This document shows positions 3 to 58,400 of a stretch of DNA of 64,000 nt, piece after piece. Source of the stretch: Cyanidioschyzon merolae (Eukaryota); assembly GCA_000091205.1 (NCBI GenBank), contig AP006493.2; one strand, given 5' to 3'. The first letter of the stretch is position 1; each line of letters opens with the position of its first letter. The notes under the pieces were generated by a model. That model did no database searches and was not told the origin of the DNA. It was given only the letters and a program-made list of their open reading frames with translations. Position numbers and translations under genes: made by a program.

Positions 3-2189
3 TTGGAGGCCCCCAAGCGGGATACGAGCCGTTCAAGTCCGGGAACGCAACGCGGAACGCTGAGTGAGCGCACGTTATCTGAACCGGACGCAACCGCGGC
101 GGATCCTGCGCAGCACCATCTGAGAGTATCATCTGATGTAGCTGTAGCAACCACTGCGGTTTCACAGCTATCGCTCAGTGCCGATGCCGACAAGACCCTA
201 ACGAAAGAGATCCCCTTCCATTCCGATTTACGCACGGATGCGCCCGAATTCGTGCCGTTTATATCGTACGGTGGCTTTGGCACATCTGCATTCCCAGTAC
301 CACAGATGAGCCCGACGTTCTTTTCAGCTCCGTACGGCGAGGCGACGCGGTCGGATCTATATCCTTTACCAGCTTATATGCAGCCTGCTGACTGGGGCAC
401 AGCGTCTGCCGGCGATACGATCGACATGCACCATCTCAGTTCTGGTGGCGAGGCGGCTGTACCCACAAGGACAGTGAGGCAGCGTGCGCCCCCAGAGGAC
501 GACGATGAGGATCTCGCAGCGGCGGCGATTTCGTCGGCGCTCGGCGAGCGGCGCCAGCATCGTGGCGGCAAGGGCGTCACCGCAGGGCGACACGCTGGAA
601 CCAGCAGTGCGCCTGGACGAACGCGGCAGCGCCCGACGATTGCGGCCAGCACGGAAGTATTTCGGGCCAACAGGGGGCGTCACCGGACTGGGATGGGTGT
701 GGGCGCTTCTGGCACCGATGGAACGCTTGCCAAGCCACAGCGCTTCGTGTCCGAGGATCGCGAAGCGCCCTCGCACTCGGAAGCTTCAGCAGCATCAGCA
801 TCAGCATCAGCATCACGTCTGGAGCAGGAAGCAACGACTCCGATGGCACGTTCTGGACAGCAACAGCGGACCGCAGATTCAAACACGAGCGCCAGCACGG
901 AGCTGCAAACGAGGCGGCGGTCTCCTGGGCTGCGAACGAGTAGCAACAGCAGCAATGTGCGCTCTGTGCAGGATGTGCGCTGCGAATCCAGGCGTGGTAC
1001 TGCTGCTCCTACTACTACTACTGCAACGCAATCGTCGCCGGGGGAGAATCTGAAAGCTGCGGACGATGAGAGCGCGCAACGTTCGGAACCTGCGCCAGCT
1101 CTTTCAGAACAGCAGAGCGGGGCTGCTGCATCCGATGCAAGAGCCGGTGTGCAAACGCGAAAGGTAACCACAGGCGTGAATAGACTCAAGGCTGTGAAGC
1201 CATCTCGGCCCGCAACCGCGAACAAGTCGGCAGCAAACGCACTAGAACCAACAGCGGGTACCGGAACGGCCGATCGGAACGGCGAAGACGCCCTGGCACC
1301 AGCGACGACGAAGCGCGGCAAGTATTGCGACCGCAACGCTGGTGCCGATGGGAAACGTCGCGAACGATGGACAAGCCGACCGCGTCCACGAAGCATGCGC
1401 GAAGGGCGTTCGCGGAGTACCGCTTCCGTTACGGGTGCTGCTTCTGCAGCGACAACGGAGCCGAAGACGGCTACAGCCTTGGACACCGCAGTCAAGATGT
1501 TGCCGTTCGAGGTCAGTGGAACACGCACACCATCGCCAGTGCAGCGGGAGCAGCAGAAGCAAGAAGCGGTGCCTGAAGCGCCAACTCGAACGTCTCCAGC
1601 GGCGGAGGGCGCTCCCAAGGCGCTTGTCACGCCAGCTGATCCCGCTGAGGATCCGAAAACGCCTGCCAAAGACCAGCGGACTCGTGAGGCAGGCTCATCT
1701 GACGCGAGGGTATCAACGACGACGCCACCATTATCATCATCAGCGTCAGCATCAGCGTCGTTGTCGTCGAAAGAGCAAGGAGCCGCCAATGCGAAAGCAA
1801 CCGCCGCTACGGGCCAAGAAACGAAACACGAGCATTCGGCTTCTCGTCGACACTCGCAACGAAAGCTGCACCCGCGACAACGTCAACAGAAGCATCGCTT
1901 CCGGAACCGGACCAATGCAGGCAGCGAACAAGTCGAAAGCTCAGCGCGCACCATGCAACCCGAGCCTGCACCAACCGGAAACGATCGTTCTTCCGCGAAC
2001 GACGAGCATCGTGCGAGCTTCAAAAACGTCGATGTTGTCCCAGTTGCTGGCGCTTCCCTTGCACAACCAAAGTTCAAGCTGTCAACCGAGAGCGCAGTCG
2101 CTTATCGCCGAGTCGAGGCGAACGCGTCTCCGAGGCGTGCTCTGCGACAATTTCGCGAAAAGGTCAGCGAGGACGCCAAAGACGCATGA
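3..2189 (+). CDS. 5'-truncated at the window edge. Ser/Ala/Thr/Arg/Pro-rich, intrinsically disordered protein carrying a PAM2 (PABP-interacting) motif, LRTDAPEFVPF
   Basis: 728-aa open frame running from the window edge. PAM2 consensus L-x-x-x-A-x-E-F-x-P at nt 223-258. Low-complexity SASASAS runs. The antisense ORFs across it are compositional artefacts. Confidence 0.5.
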   Translation: MEAPKRDTSRSSPGTQRGTLSERTLSEPDATAADPAQHHLRVSSDVAVATTAVSQLSLSADADKTLTKEIPFHSDLRTDAPEFVPFISYGGFGTSAFPVPQMSPTFFSAPYGEATRSDLYPLPAYMQPADWGTASAGDTIDMHHLSSGGEAAVPTRTVRQRAPPEDDDEDLAAAAISSALGERRQHRGGKGVTAGRHAGTSSAPGRTRQRPTIAASTEVFRANRGRHRTGMGVGASGTDGTLAKPQRFVSEDREAPSHSEASAASASASASRLEQEATTPMARSGQQQRTADSNTSASTELQTRRRSPGLRTSSNSSNVRSVQDVRCESRRGTAAPTTTTATQSSPGENLKAADDESAQRSEPAPALSEQQSGAAASDARAGVQTRKVTTGVNRLKAVKPSRPATANKSAANALEPTAGTGTADRNGEDALAPATTKRGKYCDRNAGADGKRRERWTSRPRPRSMREGRSRSTASVTGAASAATTEPKTATALDTAVKMLPFEVSGTRTPSPVQREQQKQEAVPEAPTRTSPAAEGAPKALVTPADPAEDPKTPAKDQRTREAGSSDARVSTTTPPLSSSASASASLSSKEQGAANAKATAATGQETKHEHSASRRHSQRKLHPRQRQQKHRFRNRTNAGSEQVESSARTMQPEPAPTGNDRSSANDEHRASFKNVDVVPVAGASLAQPKFKLSTESAVAYRRVEANASPRRALRQFREKVSEDAKDA
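223..258 (+). other. PAM2 motif (LRTDAPEFVPF), predicted to bind the MLLE domain of poly(A)-binding protein
   Basis: Matches the ataxin-2/Paip2 PAM2 core LNPNAKEFVP position by position. Confidence 0.5.
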
Positions 2190-3387
2190 TCGTCGTTTAT
2201 CTCAATTGCAATGCACCTCCAGATGGGTGTCATCAAATGCCTCTTCGCGGTTTACAGCAGATGCGTTTGAAATGCGTTCATTTTGAAGAATAAAAAGTCC
2301 CATGGAAAGGTATGCACATGGAGGTCGAAGATCCCGGACGACCACGATCGTCGCCTATCAAACGATACCCAAAAGAAATCCTCTTCTCACGGACCATCGA
2401 GCGAAGGAGAAGAAGAAGAACAGGAAGGAGTAAGCGAGAAGAGGTGTTTGTCCGACGGAATGGCAACGAGACCGCGGTGGTACGGAGGGCACGATTTCGA
2501 TGAATGCTCGCATCGGCAAGATCCACCAGCTGCAGATCATACATGGAGTTCGTGAACCGAGACTTGAACGTCCCCATCAATATCAGGAGATGTGCGGTAC
2601 CGAGGACGTGACCTGCGGTGCTGACGCGATCGAATTCTGTGGAGCAGTGTCTCAGACTCGAGGTGCTCAAGGAGAAAAGCACTGGGAGGCGTCTGCGGGT
2701 GGCTATTCATTTACCCGACACGGTCGTAGAACATTTTGGTGTTTCACGTATCGAGTGCGCAGCAAGCAAGTCACGTTCAAAGCACAGACGTTGCAGTCGA
2801 GCGATGCTTCATTCGGCCGCTGAAGCGAATCAGCCTTCAGCAGCTGCCGAGTCCTCAATCCCATACCCGCACACGAGCGACTGCTGCATATGGTGTTTCG
2901 GTGGCGGCGGACAAGCTTCTCGGGCGGGAGTTTCTGTGCACTAGGGCTGCGTGAGTAGCGCCGCCGGGGCGTAAAACCTTTCCGCAGCACCACGTGATGG
3001 GAATCATTTCAAGAATCTGGCTTTCAGGTAACGCTTGATGGGGGTTTCACGAGACCCGCTGCTTTCTTTGTGGGTGCATTATGCCAGTCTGCAGGATGCG
3101 GCTCTATCGGTGTCCCGATGTGCTGCAGTTTTGACCGGCGGTGCCTGCGTTCGGTACGAATATGGGGCGCTGCGTGCCCGGGAGCGCACGAACCTGGACG
3201 CTGTGGGGCTGCTTCCTCGCACGCCGTTGAACAAGCTCGCCGAACACGCCACTGGATACGAAGACGCTGGTGCTGTTGCTGCTGATTGCGTGCGGGGATT
3301 CACCTGATCTTCGTTAGACGCGATCGGAAGGTTACATGCCGATATTCGTGCGGGTGCGACCTCGTATTCCAGTCGTCGTCGTCGTTA

Positions 3388-8294: not shown

Positions 8295-9032
8295 CTAGTG
8301 ACGCCGCTGCGTGTCACGACGTTCCTCGTAACGCCATTGCCATGGCCACTCAAATAACAGCGTCTCGTCATTCGTTTCTTGAGAAGCAGCCCAGACCCCG
8401 TGATGCTCTCTGCGAGCCTCCTCTTCGTCCGGGACGTACATGGTACTAAATTTTCGGAACGCTACAGCCCAACCGTCTCGCACCATCGCACGACCGAGGT
8501 CCAGGGTCTCGCCGCTCGCCTCTTCGACTGAACAGATAGCGACAATGCGCTGGAAAGGATCGCGTCCTCGTGGGACACAGGTGACGGGGCGGGCGCCAAT
8601 GAGCGCACGAAGATGCTCCGTCGCCTGCAGGCCACAGCGGTAGGTATCGAACTTCAGCGGGGCAGCGTCTGGAGCCGTGTTGTGGATAGGCCGTCGGCAG
8701 CGCTGGCGCTGTTCAAAAGCATCCATACCGAAGAGCCGCACTCGCGTTGTACCAAACGCCAGGGTGTCGCCGTCCACTATGCGTGGATAGCCATGAATGA
8801 CTGAAGCCGACGCCGGTCTCTCTCGGTTTTCCAAAGTAACTGCGTTAGCGGGCAAAGCGAACGCTGCAGAGCGCGGCACTGATGCTGGAACGGGAGCCGT
8901 CACACCTATCACACTGATGATTCCGATACCTACCAAACAGAGACCGAACACGTCGTCCTTTCGTAGCCGGTGTCCCTTGGAGCCCCACAAGTCCCACAAG
9001 TCCCATAAAGGCACGAAACACGCAAAGGACAT
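8295..9032 (-). CDS. Staphylococcal-nuclease (SNase/thermonuclease)-like protein with an N-terminal transmembrane or signal segment
   Basis: VDGDT motif (IVDGDTLAF). C-terminal LGRAMVRDGWAVAF...HGVWAA resembles the thermonuclease LVRQGLA...GIW signature. Hydrophobic GLCLVGIGIISVIGV near the N-terminus. Confidence 0.6.
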   Translation of the reverse strand: MSFACFVPLWDLWDLWGSKGHRLRKDDVFGLCLVGIGIISVIGVTAPVPASVPRSAAFALPANAVTLENRERPASASVIHGYPRIVDGDTLAFGTTRVRLFGMDAFEQRQRCRRPIHNTAPDAAPLKFDTYRCGLQATEHLRALIGARPVTCVPRGRDPFQRIVAICSVEEASGETLDLGRAMVRDGWAVAFRKFSTMYVPDEEEARREHHGVWAASQETNDETLLFEWPWQWRYEERRDTQRRH

Positions 9033-9284
9033 TCACAGGCAGACGCAGTGCGCCACCGACTGCTGATAGCGCCTTGCTCCGGTGAGGTCCTTTGAGCTGC
9101 ACGGAGGGTGCGTAGCGCCAGACGCCCGCCAGTATGCGAACGATGCTAGAACAAAGACCGTCAACTACACCGCTTGTAAAGACGCTTCTACGTAGCACTG
9201 CACTCAGCGCAGCGTTCTTCACTGGAATCGCTCAAGTACGCTGCTTCAATACCCTCCTCTGTATCCGTTTATGGTTTAGAAACG

Positions 9285-10079
9285 TTGCGAGCAACCAGTG
9301 CGACCGTCGAGCGCACCCCAGGTATCGGCAAATTCGCGTTCGCCTTGCAGCGCTGCAGCGAGGCGATGCCCGCATTCGCGACTCGACAGCAATCGTCACA
9401 CAACGATTCCCAGTTCACCACAGGAACTCGATGCAAAGCGATGCGGTACCCGGCTGTAATTGTCGACACCGTCCGTGGCATGGTATATGGCAAAGTCGCT
9501 GTTACCCGGTGCTGCATCAACGCTGGCACGATCAAGGTTATGGAGCACGTTCGCAGCAGACTCGAGGCACAGTTCAACGTTCGACGTGACGACTATCGCC
9601 AGGATAAAGTATGTCTCATGGAACGTACAGGTAGTTCTGAAACGTACCGTACGGCACGTATCCTGGAGGAAGCGGATACGTCCGTGAACTTGGAAGTAGG
9701 ACAAGACATGCGGATCGCCACTATCGAGCACGAAATCGGGGATTTTCCTCGTCACGGAATTGCTCTGTTGCGTAAAACAATATCCTTTAACTGGCGTTGT
9801 CCAGCGTACATCCCCAAATCACAACCGTATTCTGCACAAGCACGGGAATTATGTTCCCTGCACGATAATGAATTCGATATTTTCGATGATGCTGATGATG
9901 CCGCTTCGATACCGCTGCATGAGACAGCGCGCGGGCTGAAGCGCTCGGCAGCGGCGGCGGCGGCAATGCGAGGCATTTTTCCAGGCGCTATGCTTGGCGC
10001 TGCAAACTTTGTACCCGTTTCTTCTTCAAACTCGGCACCATGTCGAATACCCTCGCAAACCTCATCCAGCAGCGTGTAG
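9285..10079 (+). CDS. Hypothetical protein, no recognisable domain
   Basis: 264-aa ORF. Its 3' end overlaps the next ORF by 40 nt in a different frame. Confidence 0.3.
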   Translation: MRATSATVERTPGIGKFAFALQRCSEAMPAFATRQQSSHNDSQFTTGTRCKAMRYPAVIVDTVRGMVYGKVAVTRCCINAGTIKVMEHVRSRLEAQFNVRRDDYRQDKVCLMERTGSSETYRTARILEEADTSVNLEVGQDMRIATIEHEIGDFPRHGIALLRKTISFNWRCPAYIPKSQPYSAQARELCSLHDNEFDIFDDADDAASIPLHETARGLKRSAAAAAAMRGIFPGAMLGAANFVPVSSSNSAPCRIPSQTSSSSV

Positions 10080-10963
10080 TTGAGAATGCATCTGACCCCT
10101 ATTTTACGCTTCCTTTTTCCATAGATTCAGATGCAGACTTGCTTCCTCGTGAAGGCACGTCACTCGGTATTGGCGGAACTGCGGCGTCACCGAGAGACGT
10201 TACGCCGAGCGCACCACCCTGGGATGCTCTCGCGGAAACGTCTTGGCCGGTGTTTGGTTCCATAAGTTGCTGTACGGATGATAATGATGGGTTACAGTGG
10301 CTTGGGGACGTTTTTCCGAGCCCGCAAAAGCAACCGATACGACGAAAAACACGTTCCCGCGCCCACCTAACTTGGTTTCCGGTGCACGTCGACGGTGCAG
10401 TCGACGCTCCGGACCCACTGACCAAGCGACTTTCCTTCTCGCTGAATGTAGGCCGCCTTCTTCTCCAGAAAGCAAAGGTCCTTTACGCAACCAGCTCCGT
10501 GTCACTGCAAAGCCGCCTTTCCAACCTGGTATGTGTTCATGGCGTTGTCCAGCATTTGCTGAAATGCATTCCGCAAACCGTTGAAGTTTGGTCAGCAGCC
10601 GCACAAGCCCGCTGGCGTCTGCTGCAAGCTCGTGTTCCGCGGTGGCATCAGGTCCGGGAATGTCATCTGGAAGGAAGCCTCACGGGCCTTGTGATCTTCG
10701 TGCGGGAGCCGAGACCCGCCCGAACATCACAACCAAGCATCAGGTACTTGAACGCTTGCGCGCATGATATAGTCGAGCGATGGCGGTCTCTATGGGACGA
10801 CTGGCAAGCTCACTGTTACCAACGACGTGCACTGTATTTTGAACGGTACTGGGAAGCACGTGCTCTTCGATTGGAAGAAGAGAGCGTGCAGGCGCGCCAA
10901 GCGGCCCAGGCCTGGAGACGAGCGCGTGAGCGGCGGCAGCGCTATCGACGTACTGAACGCTAG
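10040..10963 (+). CDS. Hypothetical protein with an Arg/Trp-rich C-terminus. It may be the continuation of 9285-10079.
   Basis: 307-aa ORF on the same strand, abutting and overlapping the upstream ORF. Confidence 0.3.
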   Translation: MSNTLANLIQQRVVENASDPYFTLPFSIDSDADLLPREGTSLGIGGTAASPRDVTPSAPPWDALAETSWPVFGSISCCTDDNDGLQWLGDVFPSPQKQPIRRKTRSRAHLTWFPVHVDGAVDAPDPLTKRLSFSLNVGRLLLQKAKVLYATSSVSLQSRLSNLVCVHGVVQHLLKCIPQTVEVWSAAAQARWRLLQARVPRWHQVRECHLEGSLTGLVIFVREPRPARTSQPSIRYLNACAHDIVERWRSLWDDWQAHCYQRRALYFERYWEARALRLEEESVQARQAAQAWRRARERRQRYRRTER

Positions 10964-10992
10964 CGCTGAGGACAGTGTCAGATGAACATGTG

Positions 10993-12336
10993 ATACTGAG
11001 CTACACGCTTTGTTCATGCCTTGAGCGTTCTCTTCCAAAGTATCATTCGATGTATCGTTGTGCTATTCAGAATTTGTAATCAGAGCTTACGGAATTTCGT
11101 GTGCAGTTGCAGGATTCTCGGTTGGTTTCCCGGGATGACGACTGCGATCCTCGGCAGACGGACTTTCTTATGTCGCTGGAATCCAGATGGATCGCGGCGT
11201 TTTACAAAATGAGCTCCCTCCATAGCCCCTATCAATAACATGTCCATACGAGAGAGTCTTCGCTCGTGTGCCTGCTCTCCGCTTTCCATGCTCAATCCAC
11301 GCACTGTTCACCGTTTCGATCATGCTGTTTGACGGCAGATCGTCGGTGCTGCGCAACCGCACCGCTGCATGGTCAAGCGAGAATCCTCAAGGTCGACCTC
11401 CAACGATTCCTCCACAAGCTCATACGGGAACCGCTGTGAACTCGTCACGCCCATTGATCGATTCCGTTCCACATTCGAGTACGCTGCTCGTTGTAGCCAG
11501 ACATGAGACAACGTTCGAGTGCAACATGATACCTGTCGCAGGATATGCATCTAGAGGCTCCCTGTCGCTTCCGTCTGTACGCAGACGGATCTCGGACTCG
11601 GACGTCAAGCATCGCAGTGATCGCTTCCAGTGGAGCGTGCGTCACCGCTCAGTACGACAGGTGCAGTGACGCACCCGAGTTTCCCGGCCAGCGTACATGC
11701 CTGCTTTTTGGTTCCGCTGCTTGTCTCATCATGGACAAGAGCGCGGTCCATAGATCCCTCATCGACGATGACGTCGAGCGGTTGTCTATGCAGCGGACAT
11801 CGTCGTCGCTGCGGGAATCGCAAATAAGGAGCACATGCTCGTGAGGCAAGGTACCTGGTGTGGACCCGGAGGCGTGCATTCGCGGAAGCCTTCTGTACCG
11901 GTCTACGGTACGCATCGTGCGATGAAGGAGGTGTTACCCTGCTCCAGTACAGCGCGTTGGAAGCGGAATACTGGCCAATATACTTAGAATGCGTGAATAG
12001 CCTCCAATTTCATGACGAAGAAGGTCACACACTGAGACTGTATACGAAGAAGATGCGAATGGCATGCGAAGCATAGATCGTTACGTTTTCCTGTGCGTGA
12101 AACGTTTGTACAGCAGCCAGGAGCAACGCCATGCGGCCTAGGACGCTGCCATGAACACCCCTCGACGTCCTGAAACATATCTGGCGGGAGAAAGAAGACC
12201 GATCCATTTCAGGGTCGGAGATAAGAGGGAGCGATCGAGAGCAGTCGCATGAAAAGCCCACAATGGTCAGTACTGATTACATCAGGAACTGTCCCAAGAA
12301 TCCTTTTTTGTTTTCGTCCTGGAGCACCCGTTGCAT
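10993..12336. repeat. Right arm of the inverted repeat, reverse-complement copy of 3388-4738
   Basis: Reciprocal ORF twins. Only a few substitutions are visible, for example HETAFECNM versus HETTFECNM. Confidence 0.85.
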
Positions 12337-12471
12337 TTTAGTCTGACATATGGTTGCATCAACGCCGAGCCATCTCGCCATGAGACAACTGCGGGCAACC
12401 AGCCGCGGCGTTTTGGCAGTTTGGCGCACTGGGTACGCTCCGCGCAGTCTCCTCGGGAGAAAACTACGGAT

Positions 12472-25594: not shown

Positions 25595-28500
25595 ATGGAC
25601 TGGAAGGCGCTTCTGATTTGCTGTGAATCGAGGTGTTCCACAGCGGGTCCCGTGCTGGAACTTGCTCGACTGGTAGCAACCTGGGACGTTGTTCCACAGG
25701 AGCGCTCCGTGCAGGGTGCAGCTACGCTTTCTTTCATCGCTAGGGGCATTGGAACCGGGTTTTTGGACCATGAGGCTTTACGAATCGATCGGGAGAACGC
25801 TTTGCGAACCCTAAACGATATCCTTGTTGACGACCACCACGTTCGAGTCATGGCTGCAGTGGCTGAGCGCGTTTCCGAGAAGTTTGCGACAAGTTGGACG
25901 CCACACGCTTTCTCTACGGTGCCGTTGCCGCCAAGCGAGGCACATACGCCGCGGACCGAAGCTTGCCAAAGCGTCGGCAACGGCTACGAACAATTGCTGC
26001 GTTCCGTGCTGGAACGATTGAAGGCTCAAAACCCGGCGCTCTTCAGTGCCCCAAGGGTACCTTCTGCAGGCTCGCAGCAGGTGCTACGCGCTCCGCCAGC
26101 GGGTACGCATATGGGCAGCTCTCGAAAGCGTCAGCGTTTAGAACACACCAAAGCAAACAGAAATCTAGATTTGCCGAAAGCACAGTCGGTTTGGTCATCG
26201 ACATGCGAGACGGCGACAGCTACAACCGGGAGCGGATTGAATGCTCTCGAGTCGGCGCCAGCACCATCATCCACGTACAACAAACCGGAGCTCCCAGCTG
26301 GACCGCCACTGTTCGATCCAGACCAACAACGCGTTTTGCATGAAACCAGCACGCTACTGACCTCTGCCTTAGAGGCGTTGGATCACTATGGCGAGTTACC
26401 ACCGAGGGCGGCGAATGCAGCCGTCCACCGCGTCTGTGCTGCACTTGGGATCGCTAGCGCCCTTCCAGCTAATGCAGTTGATGAAGCGCCGGCTCTCCGG
26501 TCGCTTTTGCAACGAGGCCTCGATTGGTGTGCGCACTTGTTGGCCGACAATTCGCCAAGCAGCTGGAGCGCACGCGCAGCTGTTAGCGAATGGGTCTTTT
26601 TGGTCGTGGTTAATTCGTCGAGCTCGCTGCGGGAGGCGCTTCATGAAGAGCACCTTGTTCTGGCGATGCAGACACTCCGCGAAGGCCTACATGCCGTAGC
26701 AAAAACTTTCGGTCAGCTGGTCGATTCCGAAAGTGATGAACACCAAGGAACACAGCGAGACGGGATCGACCAAACGCACCGACAGGCGGGATTGCGTCAG
26801 TGGAACAAGTGCGTGCAGCTTGTTGTTCGACTGACAAATTTTGTGCAGTCTTGCCCCGAGATCGCGGAAAGTCAACGTTTCCAGTCGATATCTCTCTCGC
26901 TGTTTGCACTTCATGTCGCCGACACTCTTCTGGACGAGGTGCTCCGGAGCTCAGAATCCCTCAGCCCGGCAGATACGCGCGAGCTCATCCAACGATCCGG
27001 GAGCCTGTGGTCCTCGACGACTCGCCTATTGTGCCAGACATATGCGGCGTATGCTCAATGCCGTCATCTGGTCCTCGAGGAAGTGCAAACGCTGTTGCGG
27101 CGAAGCCGCTGCGGATACCTCAGTGAAGAGAAAACTCGCAACAGCGTTGTTTCGCCAGTAACAGTCGAGACAAGTGCGGAGCGTTGGCCCCCGCTGGAAC
27201 TCGTCCTGGAATTTATCGATGTTGTAGGCCGCATCGAGTTCGCCCCGTTGCTGGTCGGAGACTCGACATGTTCGGATGCGTCCGTCGATCGAGTGAGCGC
27301 TCGCTGTAGCCCGACCGCGCTCAAGAAGCGCGCCGCCGCCACCACCACCACCAACACCACCAAACCCAGCCCGAGAGACCTCCTCGACACCTCGGCACGG
27401 TTTTTCGACACCGTAAGGACGCTCATCGACGCGCTTCTATCAGGCGGCAAAGCTACAGTTTTTGTTGGAGTCAACGACTGCTTTCCGACCATTCTCAGCT
27501 ATCTGCGCAATAGCATGAGAAAGCTGGAAGCAACAACACCCGCACCGCTGATCTTTCTGCAGTTCCTTATACGTCATACGCAAATGATAGCGAGCACCCA
27601 GCAAGCGCTGCAAGCTGAAGACCATCTGCTTCTCGCAGAGCGTTGCCTTCTCCTTGCAAATTTTCTCGACGACTTTTGTGATACGGAATTGCCGCATGAC
27701 TCAGATGCAGCTCCCCGAGAAAGTTTCTCGCATCTAGTGCAAGCGCTCGCGACTCAGCATCCATTGTGGCTGGCGCTGTGGGGATGCCTGCTGCCAATGC
27801 AAACGGACCATGAAACACTAGTTCATACTACAACTGTCCTAGAATCGCCATCATACCACAATGGAATGTTCCGGATTCAGTACTCTGAGTCAATGCTCTC
27901 GAGTGCTTCCCTTCTCTGCCTCGTCAAGCCTGCATTGAAGCGGATTCACGATTTGCTCGAAAGCGTCGCGTGTTTGCGCCTATCTCAAGTGATGCGCTCA
28001 GGCCGCGCAACGCTTCGCGCTCGCGCTATGCGACTCTTTAGCGAGGTGAGAGGTATATTGCAGCCGGCTGCAAACGAGTGTGCTCCAAGTCACGTACAGA
28101 CGCTGGACTCGGTGCGAGGTAGACAGGAAAATACTCCTGAACTTCAGAGTACAACGATGGTTACAGCGTCAAATCCGTTGTGCATTTTAACTGCACATGC
28201 ATTTCGAACCACCACCAGTGCGTGCACACCCTTTACAGCATCCAATGAAACTGCGTTGGAAACCGCCTCTAGTTCCGTTGACGACATGATCAAGTTTGCG
28301 TCTACCTGTTGTCTGGATGTTTCACCCAAAGTCCGTGAAGCCGCTCTCACATGCTATGTATCGTGGATGCGTCGTGCGCGCAGACCCAGCGCTGTATCCG
28401 AAACGCTTCTCGGACGCTTGCGCGATATCTCGGTCGCTGTTCGCCAGAAAGCTCTGGTTTTGCTGGATGCAATTTTTCAGGATCATGAGCAGCTCGACAA

Positions 28501-31189
28501 CCACGCGTGGTCGCCGATGGCAGCGCATATACTCGCACGGCTGGATGATCCGTCACCGAGCGTCCAGCGTCTCGCTCAGCGCGTTCTGCTCAAACATATT
28601 TTTCAACGCCAGCTTGTGTATCGCGAGCGCGCACCGACTTGCCCCGACACATCCGATGACTGCTTCGACCTGAACCTCTCAGATTCTGACGCAGCATCTG
28701 ACCGAGAGCGGACGGTTGTTGGACAGGCCCTGCGTCGGCGCCGTCTCCGCGTGCGTTACCTGGATGAGCAACACTCCTGGCTGGTGAGCTCTGTGTCGCA
28801 TGCGTCTGCGACGTCGGCTTCTATGGACTTGTCCTTCCAGCGGCTGAAACAAATGCTGAACGCTCTGCCGCAAGCGCTGTCGGTATCCAGTTCGTTACCG
28901 ATACCGGTACTCATGGAGCGTCTCCTGCTAGTTGGTGACAAAATCGTGTGCCTCTTTCGCGCGGAGGCGACGGCCTTGGTAGGCCTCGCGATGCGCGACC
29001 AGGCTTACGGCTTGCTCGCCATCTTGGCGCAGCTTGATGCCAACCTGCTGCGTCCTCATCTGCCGCTGCTCATCGACGAGATTCGCCTTCTCGCTGCCGA
29101 ATGTCCAATCGCTCTGCCCTCAGCTACAGAACAAGTTTTCCTATGGATCCTGCGTGCGCTGATGAACTGTACTCGCGTGCTAGGCCAGGCGCGGGCGCAG
29201 GTGCAGCTCTGGTCGACTCTGGAGAGCGCTGTCGTGCGCCTTATTCTTCAACTGCAGTCAGCGAACGATGGACTCGCTGATGAGGCCAACCGTCTTCTAC
29301 GCTTGTTGCACGATCACAACGAACATCTTGCCACAGGAGCACAACGCAGTGCCGCGTACTGGCAGCGTGTCCGGTGGTTGTGGACGTTCGTCGAGCTCCA
29401 TCAGAACGTTGCGGATGGAGAGTCTGGTGTCGAAACCTCAAGCGCACCTTCAGCGGCAGTGGTAGGTCTTGCTTTGCAGCGACTTGGCAGACTCATTCGT
29501 TACGCGCCGAAGGCACCTCCTGATGTGGCCATTCCCTTGAACAATCTGCACGATCGGTTGCTGACATGCTGCGCAACGCTCCCGGCTGCACTGATGTGCC
29601 CAGCGGCCGAGATGACGACGCCTAGGCTAACGGTACTCAGCGGTGCATTTGAATGTCTGCTGCAGCTTTCGCGCTGCGATGGGCATTTCGCCCTGAAACA
29701 ATTACCTCTATGGCAAAAGCTGTTGCAGTCTGGCTGTATCACAAGCGAGACCACATCAGGTTCACAATGCTTGTCACTGCTCCTCGGCATACAGGAACGG
29801 CTTCTGAGACATCTCGTCGAGTTTGTCGAAAGCGAACGCGCCGTTGGCGCTGCGTCCACAGCAACAGCGACGCTCCCGAGCAGCTCCAGCAACGTCATGC
29901 GACCCATCGTAGGCGGCCGGATACGCGTTCAAGCTGAACCCGACCGCGACAACTCGCAAAATGCGACCACATCATCGTGGGAGAACTGTTCCATCGCCGC
30001 CATAGACGAATCAGAAAAGGAATGCAACGTCATGTTTGGGACGATTCAGTCCATCTTGCCGAGTCTCGCGGAGGTGCTGCAAACGTCGTTGCTTGGCAAA
30101 TCGAATTCGGCACTGGTTTCTGCTGCTCGCCTGTGCCAAGTTGCACTCATCGAAGGCATTCTAACTCCAGAGCGTCTACTCAGTCCGTTGTGCTACATCT
30201 TTTGGACATTGTGGGTTCGGAATGAAGCCATAGCGACCACTCCTAAGCGCTGTTTGATGGGCGCAGATCATCCCAGCGCCGTTGCGAAGGGGGCTTTGCT
30301 GCATCTCCTCAGGGATGCGCCACAGCAGGTAGCAGCGGGCCTCGGCGATGGCCTACTAACGGCCTGGCGATCGTGCTATGACGAGCACTGGACTAGGGAG
30401 AGCGTTGGTGCGAGCGCAGCAGTTGGCACCGTGCACGCAGCCTCCGGAAGTCACGTTCACGTAGCGACTGCGAAGACGCAGGTGTCCCTGACGGACGCGT
30501 TTCTCCGCTTGAACCTGGGATACGAGGGCAACGAGCATGTTTGCGGCTTCCTGTTCTCAGCGCTGAAGGGTACCTGCTTTCGTCGGCGAGTCCTTCAGAG
30601 CATCGTGCAGGCGATCACTGCACCAGCGACCGACGAAAGATATCCGCTAAGCGTGCGCTGTGCGGCTGCCTTGTTTCTCGCAACTATCTCCGCTATTGAC
30701 CATACACTGCAGTCACAAAGAAACCTGCACCACGAACTGCACCTGCTTCTAGAAGCCCTGGAACACAGTCTTGATGAGCTCGAAGTCGCTGTAGAGGCTG
30801 TTCTCGGTTCCGCAACACCAAGTGACACGTCTCCGGGTGACGCGAGCCCGCAGCCAACGGAAACCGCTATTTGCTGTGGGTTTGTCCTGCAGCTTCGCCT
30901 ATACCTTCTGCTGCGAGCCCGGTATCACGCACTACGGTCCGTTGCCGCTCGCGAAGCGCTGGCGGGCCTGGCTGCACCGATCGTGCCGATCGCATGGCCC
31001 GAGCTCCGCGCGATAACGAACGCTGCGCTGGCGCAGTGGAGAGACACCACGACGGATGATGTGGCGCTGGACGAAGCGCCCTGCACTCATCCCGAGTCTG
31101 ATCAGGGGTCAGCGGCCGACGCCTCTACCGACAGTGTACCAGACGATGAAACATGGGATACCGAGGAGTCCTGCGGAGACGTGTCGTAG
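25595..31189 (+). CDS. Very large HEAT/ARM-repeat protein (1864 aa), possibly a condensin non-SMC D-subunit or an Scc2/Nipped-B-like loader. Identity is uncertain.
   Basis: Uninterrupted 5.6-kb ORF. Helical-repeat character throughout, with a ...VREAALTCYVSWM...VRQKALVLLDAIF...VQRLAQRVLLKHIF block typical of condensin/cohesin-loader HEAT repeats. Acidic C-terminus. Confidence 0.6.
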   Translation: MDWKALLICCESRCSTAGPVLELARLVATWDVVPQERSVQGAATLSFIARGIGTGFLDHEALRIDRENALRTLNDILVDDHHVRVMAAVAERVSEKFATSWTPHAFSTVPLPPSEAHTPRTEACQSVGNGYEQLLRSVLERLKAQNPALFSAPRVPSAGSQQVLRAPPAGTHMGSSRKRQRLEHTKANRNLDLPKAQSVWSSTCETATATTGSGLNALESAPAPSSTYNKPELPAGPPLFDPDQQRVLHETSTLLTSALEALDHYGELPPRAANAAVHRVCAALGIASALPANAVDEAPALRSLLQRGLDWCAHLLADNSPSSWSARAAVSEWVFLVVVNSSSSLREALHEEHLVLAMQTLREGLHAVAKTFGQLVDSESDEHQGTQRDGIDQTHRQAGLRQWNKCVQLVVRLTNFVQSCPEIAESQRFQSISLSLFALHVADTLLDEVLRSSESLSPADTRELIQRSGSLWSSTTRLLCQTYAAYAQCRHLVLEEVQTLLRRSRCGYLSEEKTRNSVVSPVTVETSAERWPPLELVLEFIDVVGRIEFAPLLVGDSTCSDASVDRVSARCSPTALKKRAAATTTTNTTKPSPRDLLDTSARFFDTVRTLIDALLSGGKATVFVGVNDCFPTILSYLRNSMRKLEATTPAPLIFLQFLIRHTQMIASTQQALQAEDHLLLAERCLLLANFLDDFCDTELPHDSDAAPRESFSHLVQALATQHPLWLALWGCLLPMQTDHETLVHTTTVLESPSYHNGMFRIQYSESMLSSASLLCLVKPALKRIHDLLESVACLRLSQVMRSGRATLRARAMRLFSEVRGILQPAANECAPSHVQTLDSVRGRQENTPELQSTTMVTASNPLCILTAHAFRTTTSACTPFTASNETALETASSSVDDMIKFASTCCLDVSPKVREAALTCYVSWMRRARRPSAVSETLLGRLRDISVAVRQKALVLLDAIFQDHEQLDNHAWSPMAAHILARLDDPSPSVQRLAQRVLLKHIFQRQLVYRERAPTCPDTSDDCFDLNLSDSDAASDRERTVVGQALRRRRLRVRYLDEQHSWLVSSVSHASATSASMDLSFQRLKQMLNALPQALSVSSSLPIPVLMERLLLVGDKIVCLFRAEATALVGLAMRDQAYGLLAILAQLDANLLRPHLPLLIDEIRLLAAECPIALPSATEQVFLWILRALMNCTRVLGQARAQVQLWSTLESAVVRLILQLQSANDGLADEANRLLRLLHDHNEHLATGAQRSAAYWQRVRWLWTFVELHQNVADGESGVETSSAPSAAVVGLALQRLGRLIRYAPKAPPDVAIPLNNLHDRLLTCCATLPAALMCPAAEMTTPRLTVLSGAFECLLQLSRCDGHFALKQLPLWQKLLQSGCITSETTSGSQCLSLLLGIQERLLRHLVEFVESERAVGAASTATATLPSSSSNVMRPIVGGRIRVQAEPDRDNSQNATTSSWENCSIAAIDESEKECNVMFGTIQSILPSLAEVLQTSLLGKSNSALVSAARLCQVALIEGILTPERLLSPLCYIFWTLWVRNEAIATTPKRCLMGADHPSAVAKGALLHLLRDAPQQVAAGLGDGLLTAWRSCYDEHWTRESVGASAAVGTVHAASGSHVHVATAKTQVSLTDAFLRLNLGYEGNEHVCGFLFSALKGTCFRRRVLQSIVQAITAPATDERYPLSVRCAAALFLATISAIDHTLQSQRNLHHELHLLLEALEHSLDELEVAVEAVLGSATPSDTSPGDASPQPTETAICCGFVLQLRLYLLLRARYHALRSVAAREALAGLAAPIVPIAWPELRAITNAALAQWRDTTTDDVALDEAPCTHPESDQGSAADASTDSVPDDETWDTEESCGDVS

Positions 31190-50842: not shown

Positions 50843-52711
50843 TCAAGAGTCTCCCGCGCCACTGTTTATTACTGGTTCCAGCTGTGAAGCGACCGGTGAG
50901 CTCCCGGGTGTTAGACAGAGCGTCTGGGGTGCACTGCCTGTGAGATAAATCCTGTTCGCAAAGGAAGAAACTCGCGCAAGTTGCACACTGGGCAACGCCA
51001 ACATGCTCGCAAAGACGTAACCGGTGCAGAAAGCGTCATATCCTGCCGAATGGGCTGCCCTGTCCAACGTAGCACTCTGGGCATCGCCCGAAGCAGCGTC
51101 CGCATGCAACGGAGGCATCGACGCGAAGCGCGCTGCCTCTGCGTTATCATCGCCAGCGACAAACATACTGTTACCCAAGGATGATTGACACGCTGCTGTT
51201 GCTGCTGCTCGACAGCCAGAGACTGGATCATTCGACCGTTTGGGGTAAGTTTCAGGAGGTTTCTGTCCAGCAGACCTGTCCTCGAGGTGTTCCGATTCAT
51301 CCGGAGAGAAACTCGTGACAAACGCATCCACCGATGAAGGCTGCTCCGTTGGCCGTTCTGAAACCGGTATCCCCAAAGATTCACTCAAGTCCAGCGATAT
51401 ATGCTGCGACTTCAGGGTCTCGCAGATGGCTGCGGGACTCGTGTCCAGGGTACATGCACTCTCCATCTCTCGCACAGCGTGCCCGCCGTTGGGTTGGCAT
51501 GCCTCTACTGCAACTGCTTCATCGAAGCCGTCACCTGTTTCAGTTTTTGAAGCTTCATCTGCGTCAATGATTTGATCGATGTCGTGAGAGAAACGACAGT
51601 CTCCATCCAAGCGGCAATGTCCTGAACGCGCATACCGCTTGCAGACTCGAGGGATCGCAGCGGGAGAAGCTGCGGCTCGCGACCCATAAATTGTCGCTTT
51701 CTTGGAGACGTAACCGGGCGCTGCGAGCTCCGGAAATTCTATCCGGACACCTCGTTGGGTCCGAAACCATCGACGCTCATATTTGCGAAAGACGTACTCC
51801 AGATATGCGGGACAATCACGTAGACGTGCGGGCACGAACTCTCCCAGCACTCTCGTATCGAAAAAGTAGCCGGGACACCGCGTTGCTAGCTGCGTCCTGA
51901 ATTCTTCGACGCTCGGCGGTAGCGGCGCTTCGAACGCCGCAAACATAAGCAACAGATCATAGAGTCCGTTGTGGAAAATGACGGGTTTACCGCTGCCCAG
52001 GAGGACGCTCAGTACATGCAGCGGCTCGGCCGCGGGCTGCGCTGTCGAGTTGCATCCACGATGCCTCTGGGTCCGGCGACGAAGACGCTTGGGCTCTGGT
52101 GTGCGCTCGGCACCCAAGCCGCGTTCGCGGGCAACGCTGATATGACCGAAACCCGACTGAGACGCTGCATCCTCGGTTGTGCCTCCAGGAGCTGGCACTG
52201 CACGAGCTGCCTCATGGAGCGCGTCTTCAGCAGCAGCGACGCGCCGGTACGGAATCCCGTGTGCGAACACTCTGTTAAAGTCCATACCATGCCGTACCAA
52301 AAAAGCTGCAGTATCACCGGATATCGTAAAAGCATCCTGACAGTGAAAGTAAAACTCCAAGACGTGGGCCTGATAGGCACAGACTGCTGGCACTTGCACC
52401 TGAAGCGCTTCCCGGTCCGCGGTTACCTCACTGAGGCCGCAAATCGCTCTGTGCAGCTCCTCGCACTTGGCGGTGAAGCAAACGATCCCGACTGAGAAAA
52501 TTGCGCTCGTCCCCGCTAAGCGGCGAAGGGCTTCATAGCGTACACTGAGGTCCGCAGAGTGGACCGCGGGATCCTCGCCAGTTCCTGAAAACTCTACGTC
52601 AACAGCCAGGAACGTGCAGTGGCGAAGACATTGGCCAAGCGCTTCGAGACCATCTCGATGATTCCGCCTATCAAAGCGGTAACACCTGCAACCAAAAGAG
52701 TCAGACCGCAT
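50843..52711 (-). CDS. PARN/TOE1-like CAF1-family (DEDD) poly(A) ribonuclease with an internal CCCH zinc finger
   Basis: DEDDh motifs LAVDVEFSGTG, VIFHNGLYDLLLMF and HSAGYDAFCTGYVF. C3H1 finger CKRYARSGHCRLDGDCRFSHD. Acidic and serine-rich tail. Confidence 0.75.
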   Translation of the reverse strand: MRSDSFGCRCYRFDRRNHRDGLEALGQCLRHCTFLAVDVEFSGTGEDPAVHSADLSVRYEALRRLAGTSAIFSVGIVCFTAKCEELHRAICGLSEVTADREALQVQVPAVCAYQAHVLEFYFHCQDAFTISGDTAAFLVRHGMDFNRVFAHGIPYRRVAAAEDALHEAARAVPAPGGTTEDAASQSGFGHISVARERGLGAERTPEPKRLRRRTQRHRGCNSTAQPAAEPLHVLSVLLGSGKPVIFHNGLYDLLLMFAAFEAPLPPSVEEFRTQLATRCPGYFFDTRVLGEFVPARLRDCPAYLEYVFRKYERRWFRTQRGVRIEFPELAAPGYVSKKATIYGSRAAASPAAIPRVCKRYARSGHCRLDGDCRFSHDIDQIIDADEASKTETGDGFDEAVAVEACQPNGGHAVREMESACTLDTSPAAICETLKSQHISLDLSESLGIPVSERPTEQPSSVDAFVTSFSPDESEHLEDRSAGQKPPETYPKRSNDPVSGCRAAATAACQSSLGNSMFVAGDDNAEAARFASMPPLHADAASGDAQSATLDRAAHSAGYDAFCTGYVFASMLALPSVQLARVSSFANRIYLTGSAPQTLCLTPGSSPVASQLEPVINSGAGDS

Positions 52712-55404: not shown

Positions 55405-58400
55405 ATGGCACCAACAACTAAGCGGAAAACCAAGTTTTCTCTGCTGGACTTGCGAGCTGAAGTTTCCGTCCTTCAGGAGCGACTTGGTTCCGGCTCTCGG
55501 GTGCTGAATGTTTACAACCTAGGCCGCAAGACGTACCTGTTAAAGTTATCAGTGCCGCCGTTAAACGCTTCAGGTCGGATACCAGCGACTGAGACTGAAG
55601 AAGCATGGGCAACTGGTGATAGCAGCTGGCGCAGGGAGTACCTGTTGATCGAGTCTGGTGTTCGCCTGCACACCACGAGGTTCACGCGTCAAGCCGCTGC
55701 TGCTGGTACGGCAGCAGCGTCGCTCGTGAGCCGCCAAAAAATTGGTACAGATGAGACTCTGGACAACTCCATCGCTACGGACCTCGCCCACATGGACTTG
55801 GATGAACGGGACCGGGAACTGCAGCTCGTACTCCAGCGACACCGAGCACTTGCAGAGCACGAGCAGCGAGCACAGTCTGGAACGGGTGCAAACGCAGAAC
55901 TTCCATCTGGTTTCACGCTCAAGCTGCGAAAGCATCTGCGAACACGGCGCCTAGCTGAAGTTACCCAACTCGGTATCGATCGCGTCGTAGACTTTCGGTT
56001 CGTGGGTGGGTCCCAATCCGCCTCTGCCTACAAGGCCAGCGCGAACGGGCAGCCTTCGCGGGCTGCGCTCGAGAACCACCTCATCGTTGAGCTGCACTCG
56101 GGCGGCAACATTATCCTCACTGACGGAGACTATCAGATTCTGGCTGTGCTCCGCGTCTTCCGAGCGGAACCAAGGCCGCTTGCAGATTCCGCAGATCAGC
56201 GGGATCCTCCGGCAACGGGACCCGGATCCCGGCGCATGCAACAACAAGACGCTGTCGTTGGTGCGCGCTACGACATCAGTCTAGCACGACAGTTTGCACC
56301 TTTGACGTACGATCGTCTACACGAGATTTTTCAAGAGTGTTACCAAAAGCGTCAGCGAAGCGGCGGAGACCAGCTTCGCGACCTCCAACGCAATCTCGGG
56401 CGAGCGCTAGGCTGGGGTCCTGAACTCATTGAACACGTGCTGCTCGAGGTAGGTGCACCATCGCCTGATCCGCTGCCAGAATACGAGCAACGACTCTATC
56501 GCGTGCTCTGTGAGGCGGCAGCATTTCTATCAGAGTCGCCTCGAGAGGGATATATATTGCTGCGTCCAGTAGCAGAGGGAGCGTCCCAGGCCTCTGGTGC
56601 TGACTCCGAGGATGTTTCAGATCGCTATTGCGAGTTCACGCCTCGTTTACTACGTCAGCACCAGCATCTGGAGCCACGAATGTTTCCGTCCTTCGACGAA
56701 GCGGTAGATGAATATTTTGCTCGAATGGAAGAACTACGGTATCGACAGGAAATTGAGAATCGACAACGGCAGGCACAGGGAACACTGGAGCGCATGCGCC
56801 GTGAGCTCGAAACGCGAGTGCTTACGCTAAAACAGCAGGAAGAGCGCTGTCTGCGAAAGGCTGCACTCATTGAGACGAATTTGGTGGATGTCGACAACGC
56901 GCTGCAGGTCATAAGAGCAGCACTAGCGTCTGGTATCGACTGGAAGGAATTGGACCAAATGCTGGTACTAGAGCGTCGTCGAGGGAACCCCGTCGCGCAG
57001 CTCATTCATTCGCTGCAGCTGCAAGAGAACCAGATGACGCTGATGCTTGCAGATGATAGCGGCAGCGTGGACAACACCGATGCGGAGACGGGGAGCTCAT
57101 CACGGCAGCGGCGTCCTGCCGAGACGCGAGACCTCTCGAACGAGGACTCAGCGAGCTCTGTAGAGAGCGCAAGCGAGGACGAGTCGGGCGACAGTACGTC
57201 CGTGTGCTCCTCCAGAGTGGAGCTCGTCCAAGTGGACCTGAGCCTAAGTGCCTTTGCTAATGCTCGACGTTATTATGAACAGCGAAAGAAAGCAGCGGAG
57301 AAGGGCACCAAAACGATGGAAGCGAGCGCTCAAGCGCTTCGGGCTGCCGAGAAGAAAGCGCTGGAAGTGCTCGCCGGCACTGCCTCGAAAAACAAGCGAA
57401 AGAAAGCAACACCCCTGAATACGTTGAAAGCAATACGGAAACCGCTATGGTTCGAGAAATTTCGCTATTTCATCACTTCAGAGAACTATCTCGTGATTGC
57501 CGGGAAAGACAGTCAACAGAATGAACAGCTCGTGCGTCGATACCTTGAGGAGAACACCGGTGACCTCTACATGCATGCGGACGTTCACGGGGCAGCAAGT
57601 GTCATTATCAAAGGCAAAAAGAATCGTCCGGCGCCCCCGCTATCGATCCAAGAAGCAGCTATCTTTGCGGCCGCCTGTAGTTCCGCATGGGACGCCAAAG
57701 TCGCTGTCAATGCCTATTGGGTATATCCGGAACAAGTTAGCCGCACTGCTCCCAGCGGTATGTATCTGCAGCAGGGTAGTTTTGTGATTCGCGGATCCCG
57801 GAACTACGTACCGGTGACGACGTCTGGATCTGGCCCGTTGGTCATGGGGTTTGGGTTCCTCTTTCGACTGGCTCCGGAGTCTGTGTGGCGTCATATTGGG
57901 GAGCGCCCTGTACGCAGCGGCCCAGACTCGCTGCAAGAGGCGCAAGCTGCTGGAGCGCCTCAAAAACAACAACAGCAAGTCGAGGGTGCTGGCGAGCGAA
58001 TCCTCGAGATCGAGTCGGACACACTGAATGCGACTCTAGGTGAAGATGCGCACATCACAAACGTGAACGGAGCAAGTCGAGCTGGTCAACATTCCGCTGC
58101 AGATACCATTACCACCGAAGCGCGAAGTCCTCTTGGTCATGATGGCGGTATGCAGGCCACCAAGGCCGCAATTGGTGTCAGGAGCCACTCAGAGGCCAAC
58201 GGAGCATGTGTTGATGCGGGCTCAGGTCTTCCAGATGTATCTCCTGATCGGCCGCAAGATACCCATGACAACGTTACGCTTCCGATCGCTAGTGATACTA
58301 CAACGAGAACGGATACGCGTAATGGAAACAGCCCAGGGACGATACCGGGCTCGCATGCTCGCACCACGCTCCAACTACCGTCGTCATCGTCGGAAACGGA

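Follow-up and report, generated by a model that had tools for sequence, protein, structure and literature searches.

BAM80578.1 of Cyanidioschyzon merolae, a long disordered protein with a conserved, variant PAM2-like motif and a candidate partner of the poly(A)-binding protein

Introduction

GW182/TNRC6 of animals and Upa2 of the endosomal messenger ribonucleoprotein (mRNP) of Ustilago maydis are very long disordered proteins, in which acidic Trp/Phe short motifs and a helical or coiled region are combined with at least one PAM2 motif. The canonical consensus of PAM2 is LNxxAxEFxP; its Leu and Phe are anchored in a pair of hydrophobic MLLE pockets, its Ala faces the surface of this domain, and Asn4 lends stability to the beta-turn of the peptide in its bound form (PMC7356810). 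A PAM2-like motif is found at the beginning of a 64,000-nucleotide (nt) stretch of DNA from Cyanidioschyzon merolae (contig AP006493.2 of assembly GCA_000091205.1; the whole stretch is called the window here), in an open reading frame (ORF) at 3-2189 on the plus strand that encodes the C-terminal part of the protein BAM80578.1. Based on the comparisons described below, BAM80578.1 is proposed, at a rough probability of 0.65, to be a lineage-specific disordered scaffold that docks on the poly(A)-binding protein (PABP) through this variant PAM2.

The PAM2-like motif and its conservation

The motif LRTDAPEFVPF, carried by the peptide KEIPFHSDLRTDAPEFVPFISYGG, occupies residues 76-86 of the ORF (nt 228-260). 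It is present in one copy per protein and fits the PAM2 core L-x3-A-x-E-F-x-P. Leu3 and Phe10, the two hydrophobic anchors, are in place and invariant in the four orthologues, and so are Ala7, Glu9 and Pro12. The invariance extends over thirteen contiguous residues, HSDLRTDAPEF[VI]P, in 4/4 orthologues. The sequence-only reading of this DNA, in which the motif was first noticed, had left its conservation in homologues to be looked for, and it was found in every orthologue recovered.

Among the 128,000 residues of the six-frame translation of the window, the pattern L...A.EF.P is found a single time. Its per-position probability is 1.2e-6, so that about 0.002 matches are expected in this protein, and about 3 in a proteome that totals 2.5 million residues. 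Since some three chance matches per proteome are expected, presence of the motif alone proves little, and a match by itself is not significant in a genome-wide scan. It is conservation that confers significance, because the motif lies inside one of about six invariant islands; calculated from the per-position frequency, the chance of the pattern starting at any of the roughly 110 island residues is about 1e-4.

The orthologues were collected by a full HMMER scan of the conserved 157-column block against 1.84 billion representative proteins, to which cluster lookups were added. Besides two repetitive false positives (P0064 and P0065), only cyanidiophyte proteins were matched, and the family appears so far to be confined to Cyanidiophyceae. 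A word-indexed protein search, whose list of 8000 candidates is saturated by low-complexity words, did not return even the 90% cluster (P0062/P0074) to which the query belongs, and is uninformative on the range of the family; the unindexed HMM scan and an exact-sequence lookup each recovered this cluster. Pairwise identity among the four orthologues is 27-39%, much of which is alignment noise, and strict conservation in the four-orthologue alignment is limited to about six islands, so that BAM80578.1 consists of short conserved motifs strung between fast-evolving low-complexity sequence. Conservation is just as strict in the acidic-aromatic island LTDWSEDPDEEMNFSVPLD and in the E/R-rich helix as in the PAM2-like motif. 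Among the metagenomic strain variants no island was variable; with one truncated model set aside there are about 25 variable sites overall, too few to gauge constraint.

Disordered context of the motif

The ORF had been described from its letters as a disordered, low-complexity sequence rich in S/A/T/R/P, and its composition bears this out, with A 15.8%, S 12%, R 10.2%, T 9.9% and P 7.4%. The share of hydrophobic residues is only 14%, where folded proteins encoded in the window reach 28-31%; disorder-promoting residues account for 82%. An AlphaFold2 model, weak when taken alone on account of its shallow alignment, showed no fold and a coil at the motif (mean predicted local distance difference test score 51.8; predicted template modelling score 0.11). 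Its sole helix of at least 4 residues spans model residues 123-129, in the LAAAAIS island. The region of the PAM2-like motif is thus predicted to be disordered.

Downstream of the motif, the stretch at 324-398 is the only aromatic-rich part of the ORF (F/W/Y 8.6% vs 3% overall) and may extend the docking site. The second invariant island, at 498-554, is identical in 4/4 orthologues except for I/V and R/H exchanges. The tail of about 540 residues that follows is not alignable, and at the Cyanidiococcus locus no tblastn similarity was found beyond the islands. For the three orthologues of full length its net charge comes to +34, +39 and +25, and for the truncated Cyanidiococcus model P0001 to +11; the R+K content is 16-21% and the isoelectric point 10-11. 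Such a tail may represent a non-specific RNA-binding region or a spacer.

The poly(A)-binding protein of C. merolae and its MLLE domain

With a fragment of the C. merolae PABP given in the supplement of PMC5862402, metagenome contigs 100% identical to it were retrieved, and these yielded a complete ORF of 999 amino acids (contig Ga0080006_1158104, 3470-6469). The protein contains four RNA recognition motifs (RRMs) and, at about residues 895-975, an MLLE domain (PF00658, 101 bits vs a cut-off of 27). KITGMLLE is intact in this domain, and 48/76 residues are identical to the MLLE of human PABPC1 (E 1e-24). The pocket residues reported for the human domain (PMC7356810) were mapped by hand on the alignment of human and C. 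merolae MLLE. In the pocket for the aromatic residue, Phe10, 6/7 are identical (Q560, E564, L566, K580, T582 and L586), the remaining one being F567 replaced by Y; in the pocket for Leu3, L569, P600 and L603 are identical. PAM2-MLLE recognition is probably in use in C. merolae, because its ataxin-2 orthologue CMK070C is not among the 12 of 216 ataxin-2 orthologues reported to have no PAM2 logo (PMC4105795).

The C. merolae PABP is unusually long, with an S/A/G-rich N-terminal extension of about 180 residues and an acidic insertion of about 70 residues between RRMs.

Proposed docking mechanism

A mechanism is proposed in which the MLLE domain at the PABP C-terminus would receive Leu3 and Phe10 of the motif in its two hydrophobic pockets, in parallel to the use made of PAM2 by GW182, Upa2, ataxin-2 and the Paip proteins. 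Docking on MLLE would tether BAM80578.1 to poly(A)-tailed mRNPs, the conserved basic tail would touch RNA non-specifically, and the remaining islands (LTDWxEDPDEEMNF, the E/R-rich helix, PSFEDISRAFA and the DDDEDLAAAAISSALGE helix) might recruit or oligomerise further factors. The net result would be a PABP-docked mRNP scaffold with an effect on translation or on mRNA stability and decay; activation and repression cannot be told apart.

Evidence against docking and alternative explanations

A number of observations weigh against docking on PABP. Position 4 is Arg in 4/4 orthologues, not the canonical Asn or Ser, and a stricter ELM-style pattern with [NS] at that position leaves the motif unmatched. 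The Pfam model PF07145, which has 18 positions only and was built on the C-terminal region of ataxin-2, gave no match on the C. merolae motif and a sub-threshold one on that of Cyanidium (13.2 bits, E 0.074, cut-off 20). When the 42-residue region of the motif was compared by phmmer with 177,635 PDB sequences, the single match was 1JGN_B, the Paip2 PAM2 peptide of the PABC complex (HSDLRTDAPEFVPFISYGG vs KSNLNPNAKEFVPGVKYGN, 19 residues including a downstream YG); the identity of this match speaks for docking, but its E of 1.3 is non-significant. The residues H, S, D, R, T and D, whose positions are solvent-facing in known complexes, are invariant as well; this hints at an additional or a different constraint. 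On the side of the domain, two of the five leucine-pocket residues differ (T576 to E and L597 to V) and the alpha2-alpha3 loop carries a 5-residue insertion. Finally, a literature search returned no binding, expression or localisation data for BAM80578.1. Taken together, HSDLRTDAPEFVP appears to be a good but variant PAM2 motif. The match to the core L-x3-A-x-E-F-x-P, on which the sequence-only reading had relied, holds; the word "textbook" that it had used is too strong for a motif with Arg at position 4 and with PF07145 below threshold.

Arg in place of Asn, the sub-threshold PF07145 score, the E of 1.3 and the invariance of solvent-facing residues, together with the three or so chance matches to the core per proteome, would also suit an island that serves as a short linear motif for some other partner, either a peptide-binding domain or a kinase or phosphatase acting on Ser/Thr. 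Its likeness to PAM2 would then be convergent or accidental and there would be no direct link to PABP. This explanation is considered rather unlikely, though it is a serious competitor: every anchor (L3, A7, E9, F10 and P12) is present and invariant, the odds of a conserved island fitting the pattern by chance are about 1e-4, the sole match in the PDB is itself a PAM2 peptide, and the same organism possesses an MLLE domain with conserved pockets. As to the more radical doubt, that the open frame at 3-2189 arose by chance in GC-rich DNA and goes untranslated, long spurious ORFs do occur on the opposite strand and in another frame of this region of 61% GC. A log-odds score of codon usage, for which eight genes of the window confirmed by Pfam had served as training set, was applied to six frames per 300-nt step; the frame 3-2189(+) scored highest of the six in every step, and it alone was positive throughout. 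Protein-level conservation in three other genera is restricted to this frame, and the identical gene model has been called in GenBank and in many metagenome assemblies, so that a chance frame can be practically dismissed. For the overlapping ORFs at 680-1789(-), of 369 amino acids, and 1342-2286(+), of 314 amino acids, the codon-usage score is 0 or less in the majority of steps and never attains that of the real frame, which marks these ORFs as artefacts of the GC composition.

Two further explanations concern the family to which BAM80578.1 belongs. Its PAM2-like motif in a long disordered region, together with a short polyglutamine-like run (QQQHQQQQ) in the N-terminal part, recalls ataxin-2/Pbp1; that it is the C. 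merolae orthologue of these proteins is effectively refuted. The LSm and Sm-AD domains, for which a search had been suggested, were found neither in the 1623-residue protein nor in its orthologues: when P0062, P0063 and P0084, all full-length, were run through hmmscan at E<=10, neither LSm (Sm-ATX) nor LSmAD turned up. Moreover, the published C. merolae orthologue, CMK070C, is a separate gene, and BAM80578.1 lies ten accessions before CMK235C. It is likewise quite improbable, if compatible with docking on PABP, that BAM80578.1 belongs, as a highly diverged member, to PRRC2/BAT2, a family of large disordered proteins of translation initiation and stress granules, and has gained a PAM2. Of the PRRC2A and PRRC2C sequences used here, Pfam validates only the BAT2_N part, the N-termini scoring 219 and 169 bits on BAT2_N (PF07001). 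Against the unvalidated "RER" region, the E/R-rich helix AAERARQRREEEERxExERxERAALKLRxLEERIA gave an hhalign probability of 93% with 55% identity over 38 columns, a score above residue shuffles and almost all block shuffles; E/R-rich helices, however, are common and periodic. Both proteins are long and disordered with a basic region containing R/G, and PRRC2B co-purifies with PABP, but this association is RNase-sensitive and no PAM2 was described (PMC12700102). BAT2_N was unmatched by Pfam on any orthologue at E<=10, and hhalign of the N-terminal 260 residues against the validated BAT2_N sequences gave a probability of 0.2%. Membership in PRRC2 is unsupported, with BAT2_N rejected and the similarity limited to the E/R helix.

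For the preferred explanation, docking of BAM80578.1 on PABP, the change of human T576 to Glu adjoins the expected site of peptide position 4, and a contact between Arg4 of the motif and this Glu is for that reason an attractive, if purely conjectural, possibility. A more far-reaching version, which is decidedly doubtful, would see in BAM80578.1 a red-algal functional counterpart of the GW182, Upa2 and PRRC2 scaffolds, in which Arg4 co-evolved with the change in the MLLE leucine pocket (human T576 to Glu) into a lineage-specific pair of motif and domain, with the E/R helix as perhaps an ancient link to PRRC2.

Gene model and features of the family

Translation of 3-2189(+) gave a single open frame of 728 sense codons with a TGA stop at 2187-2189. 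The protein is listed as BAM80578.1, XP_005536614.1 and UniProt M1VHW6, a "hypothetical protein, conserved" of 1623 amino acids; codons 1-895 lie upstream of the window, and the ORF of the window corresponds to the C-terminal 45%. Extension of the ORF upstream had been advised by the sequence-only reading, and cluster lookup recovered the full 1623-residue protein. The regulator had also been called unannotated, which is true of its function alone, for the gene model is already annotated. The DNA ligase of the window is CMK235C (PMC3914683). BAM80578.1 corresponds roughly to CMK22xC, because it precedes this ligase by ten protein accessions. In a literature search its accessions were mentioned in no paper. 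Features of the window, of the protein and of its orthologues are collected in Table 1.

Table 1. Position of the gene end, of the conserved and low-complexity parts of BAM80578.1, of its orthologues and of two distant genes (nt of the window unless residues are stated).
Feature	Position	Strand	Remarks
BAM80578.1 gene end, C. merolae 10D	3-2189	+	final 728 codons and TGA; translation is an exact suffix of BAM80578.1
PAM2-like island EIPFHSDLRTDAPEFVPF	207-260	+	core LRTDAPEFVP at 228-257; contains the invariant 13 residues HSDLRTDAPEFVP
Island HSDLRTDAPEF[VI]P	219-257	+	the invariant 13 residues
Semi-conserved aromatic stretch SAPYGEATRSDLYPLPAYMQPADWG	324-398	+	PYG, LP.Y and DWG retained in 3/4 orthologues
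Second invariant island DDDEDLAAAAISSALGERR	498-554	+	acidic run, then short Ala-rich helix; island DDEDLAAAA[IV]SSALGE[RH]R
Basic R/S/T/A-rich low-complexity tail	555-2186	+	sequence unconserved, strong positive charge conserved
Islands TLGRGGR and DFPALVR			strictly conserved among orthologues
Acidic-aromatic island L[TS]DW[ST]EDPDEEMNF (LTDWSEDPDEEMNFSVPLD)	BAM80578.1 residues 306-326		outside window
E/R-rich helix AERARQRREEEERxExERxERAxxKLxxLEER	BAM80578.1 residues 455-513		outside window
Island PSFE[DE]ISRAFA			strictly conserved among orthologues
Orthologue, C. merolae BAM80578.1 (P0074)			with strain variants from hot-spring metagenomes
Orthologue, related lineage (P0063)			1573 amino acids
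Orthologue, Cyanidiococcus yangmingshanensis (P0001)			truncated model
Orthologue, Cyanidium caldarium KAK4535282.1 (P0084)			1068 amino acids
PARN-like gene	50843-52711	-	48-53 kilobases from the ORF at 3-2189 (range for PARN-like and NEMF)
NEMF gene	55405-59520	+	

Pfam assigned no family to the ORF of the window, to the full-length orthologues or to the isolated islands. A precomputed weak match of PF27955 ("C160412_helical") lies on the E/R helix, and no mention of it was found in a literature search. A hexanucleotide repeat, (GCATCA)n, encodes (SA)n at about nt 783-812(+); the lengths of this repeat and of a nearby Thr run vary between strain 10D and the metagenomic strain variants (719/728 identity, with the insertions and deletions in these repeats).

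On VWRR01000010.1 of Cyanidiococcus (8851-12340), the orthologue is annotated as two genes, of 350 and 779 amino acids, because near 9908-9915 the reading frame changes, be it through an error of the assembly or through a genuine frameshift. The gene being split by this frame change, P0001 is without the N-terminal islands. That the C-terminal 540 residues are encoded in the gene downstream of the Cyanidiococcus orthologue was rejected, as no similarity was found there and the model is split upstream instead.

Genomic neighbourhood

Four complete proteins encoded in the window match C. merolae 10D proteins exactly, on a chromosome of 852,849 base pairs: trmE (BAM80579), the PARN-like gene (BAM80592), DNA ligase I (BAM80588) and NEMF (BAM80593). 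The presence of a PARN-like deadenylase and of the ribosome quality control factor NEMF in the same window had been taken for a probable coincidence, and this is probably right, for both are distant and stand amid unrelated housekeeping genes. Between the ORF and these two lie, on both strands, trmE, a mitochondrial-type IF2, a large HEAT-like protein, DNA ligase I and two transporters. A functional link was rejected on the grounds of the separation by 48-53 kilobases and of the unrelated genes in between. The window gave no Rfam match, and a tRNA scan detected no tRNAs.

A CAF1-family nuclease (PF04857), interrupted at residues 355-377 by a CCCH zinc finger, is the product of the PARN-like gene; in the PDB it is matched best by PARN (2A1R, E 3e-15). 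This layout of nuclease plus C3H finger presumably recalls TOE1/Caf1z rather than classical PARN. An ORF of 1864 amino acids at 25595-31189(+), with a sub-threshold Pfam match to PDS5 (19.4 bits, cut-off 27), is probably a HEAT-repeat protein.

Significance

Few free-living eukaryotes have as small a gene set as C. merolae, which is also genetically tractable. Its post-transcriptional machinery serves as a minimal model (e.g. PMC5862402). If BAM80578.1 is a lineage-specific PABP-docking scaffold, a testable part would be added to this minimal mRNP toolkit, a function would be given to a 1623-residue "hypothetical protein", and a natural Arg4 variant would be available for probing the specificity of PAM2-MLLE recognition. 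The understanding of that recognition would itself be unchanged, as PAM2 is known to arise repeatedly in unrelated disordered proteins. BAM80578.1 is thus a plausible and fairly ordinary addition to the known PAM2-bearing partners of PABP, of interest mainly to the fields of C. merolae mRNA biology and of PAM2-MLLE specificity.

Comparison with known systems

With ataxin-2, Pbp1 and plant CID3-4, BAM80578.1 shares a brief Q-rich run and the location of its PAM2-like motif inside a long disordered region in the C-terminal part; it differs from them in having no LSm/LSmAD, and the true C. merolae orthologue is CMK070C. PRRC2/BAT2 proteins are similarly long and disordered, with an "RER" region that the E/R helix may resemble and a basic, R/G-containing region after it, but the BAT2_N domain that defines them is undetectable in the algal protein and no PAM2 is described in PRRC2.

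The closest likeness in the motif itself is to the PAM2 peptides of Paip2 and Paip1 (MLLE complexes 1JGN and 3KUS), with which the core L-x3-A-x-E-F-x-P and the disordered context are shared, and EFVP and the downstream YG align with Paip2. The PAM2 of Paip1 also has A-P-E-F at positions 7-10. The algal motif differs from both in Arg for Asn/Ser at position 4 and Asp for Asn at position 6, and its host, a protein of 1623 amino acids, is without other similarity to them and without MIF4G domain or PAM1. Between BAM80578.1 and GW182/TNRC6 or Upa2 no sequence homology was detected; the algal protein has one PAM2 and neither GW repeats, an Argonaute-binding region nor a GWW motif, and its family is restricted to Cyanidiophyceae. 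In outline, however, these proteins are alike: BAM80578.1, too, is long and disordered, and carries an acidic-aromatic motif, a helix and a PAM2-like motif.

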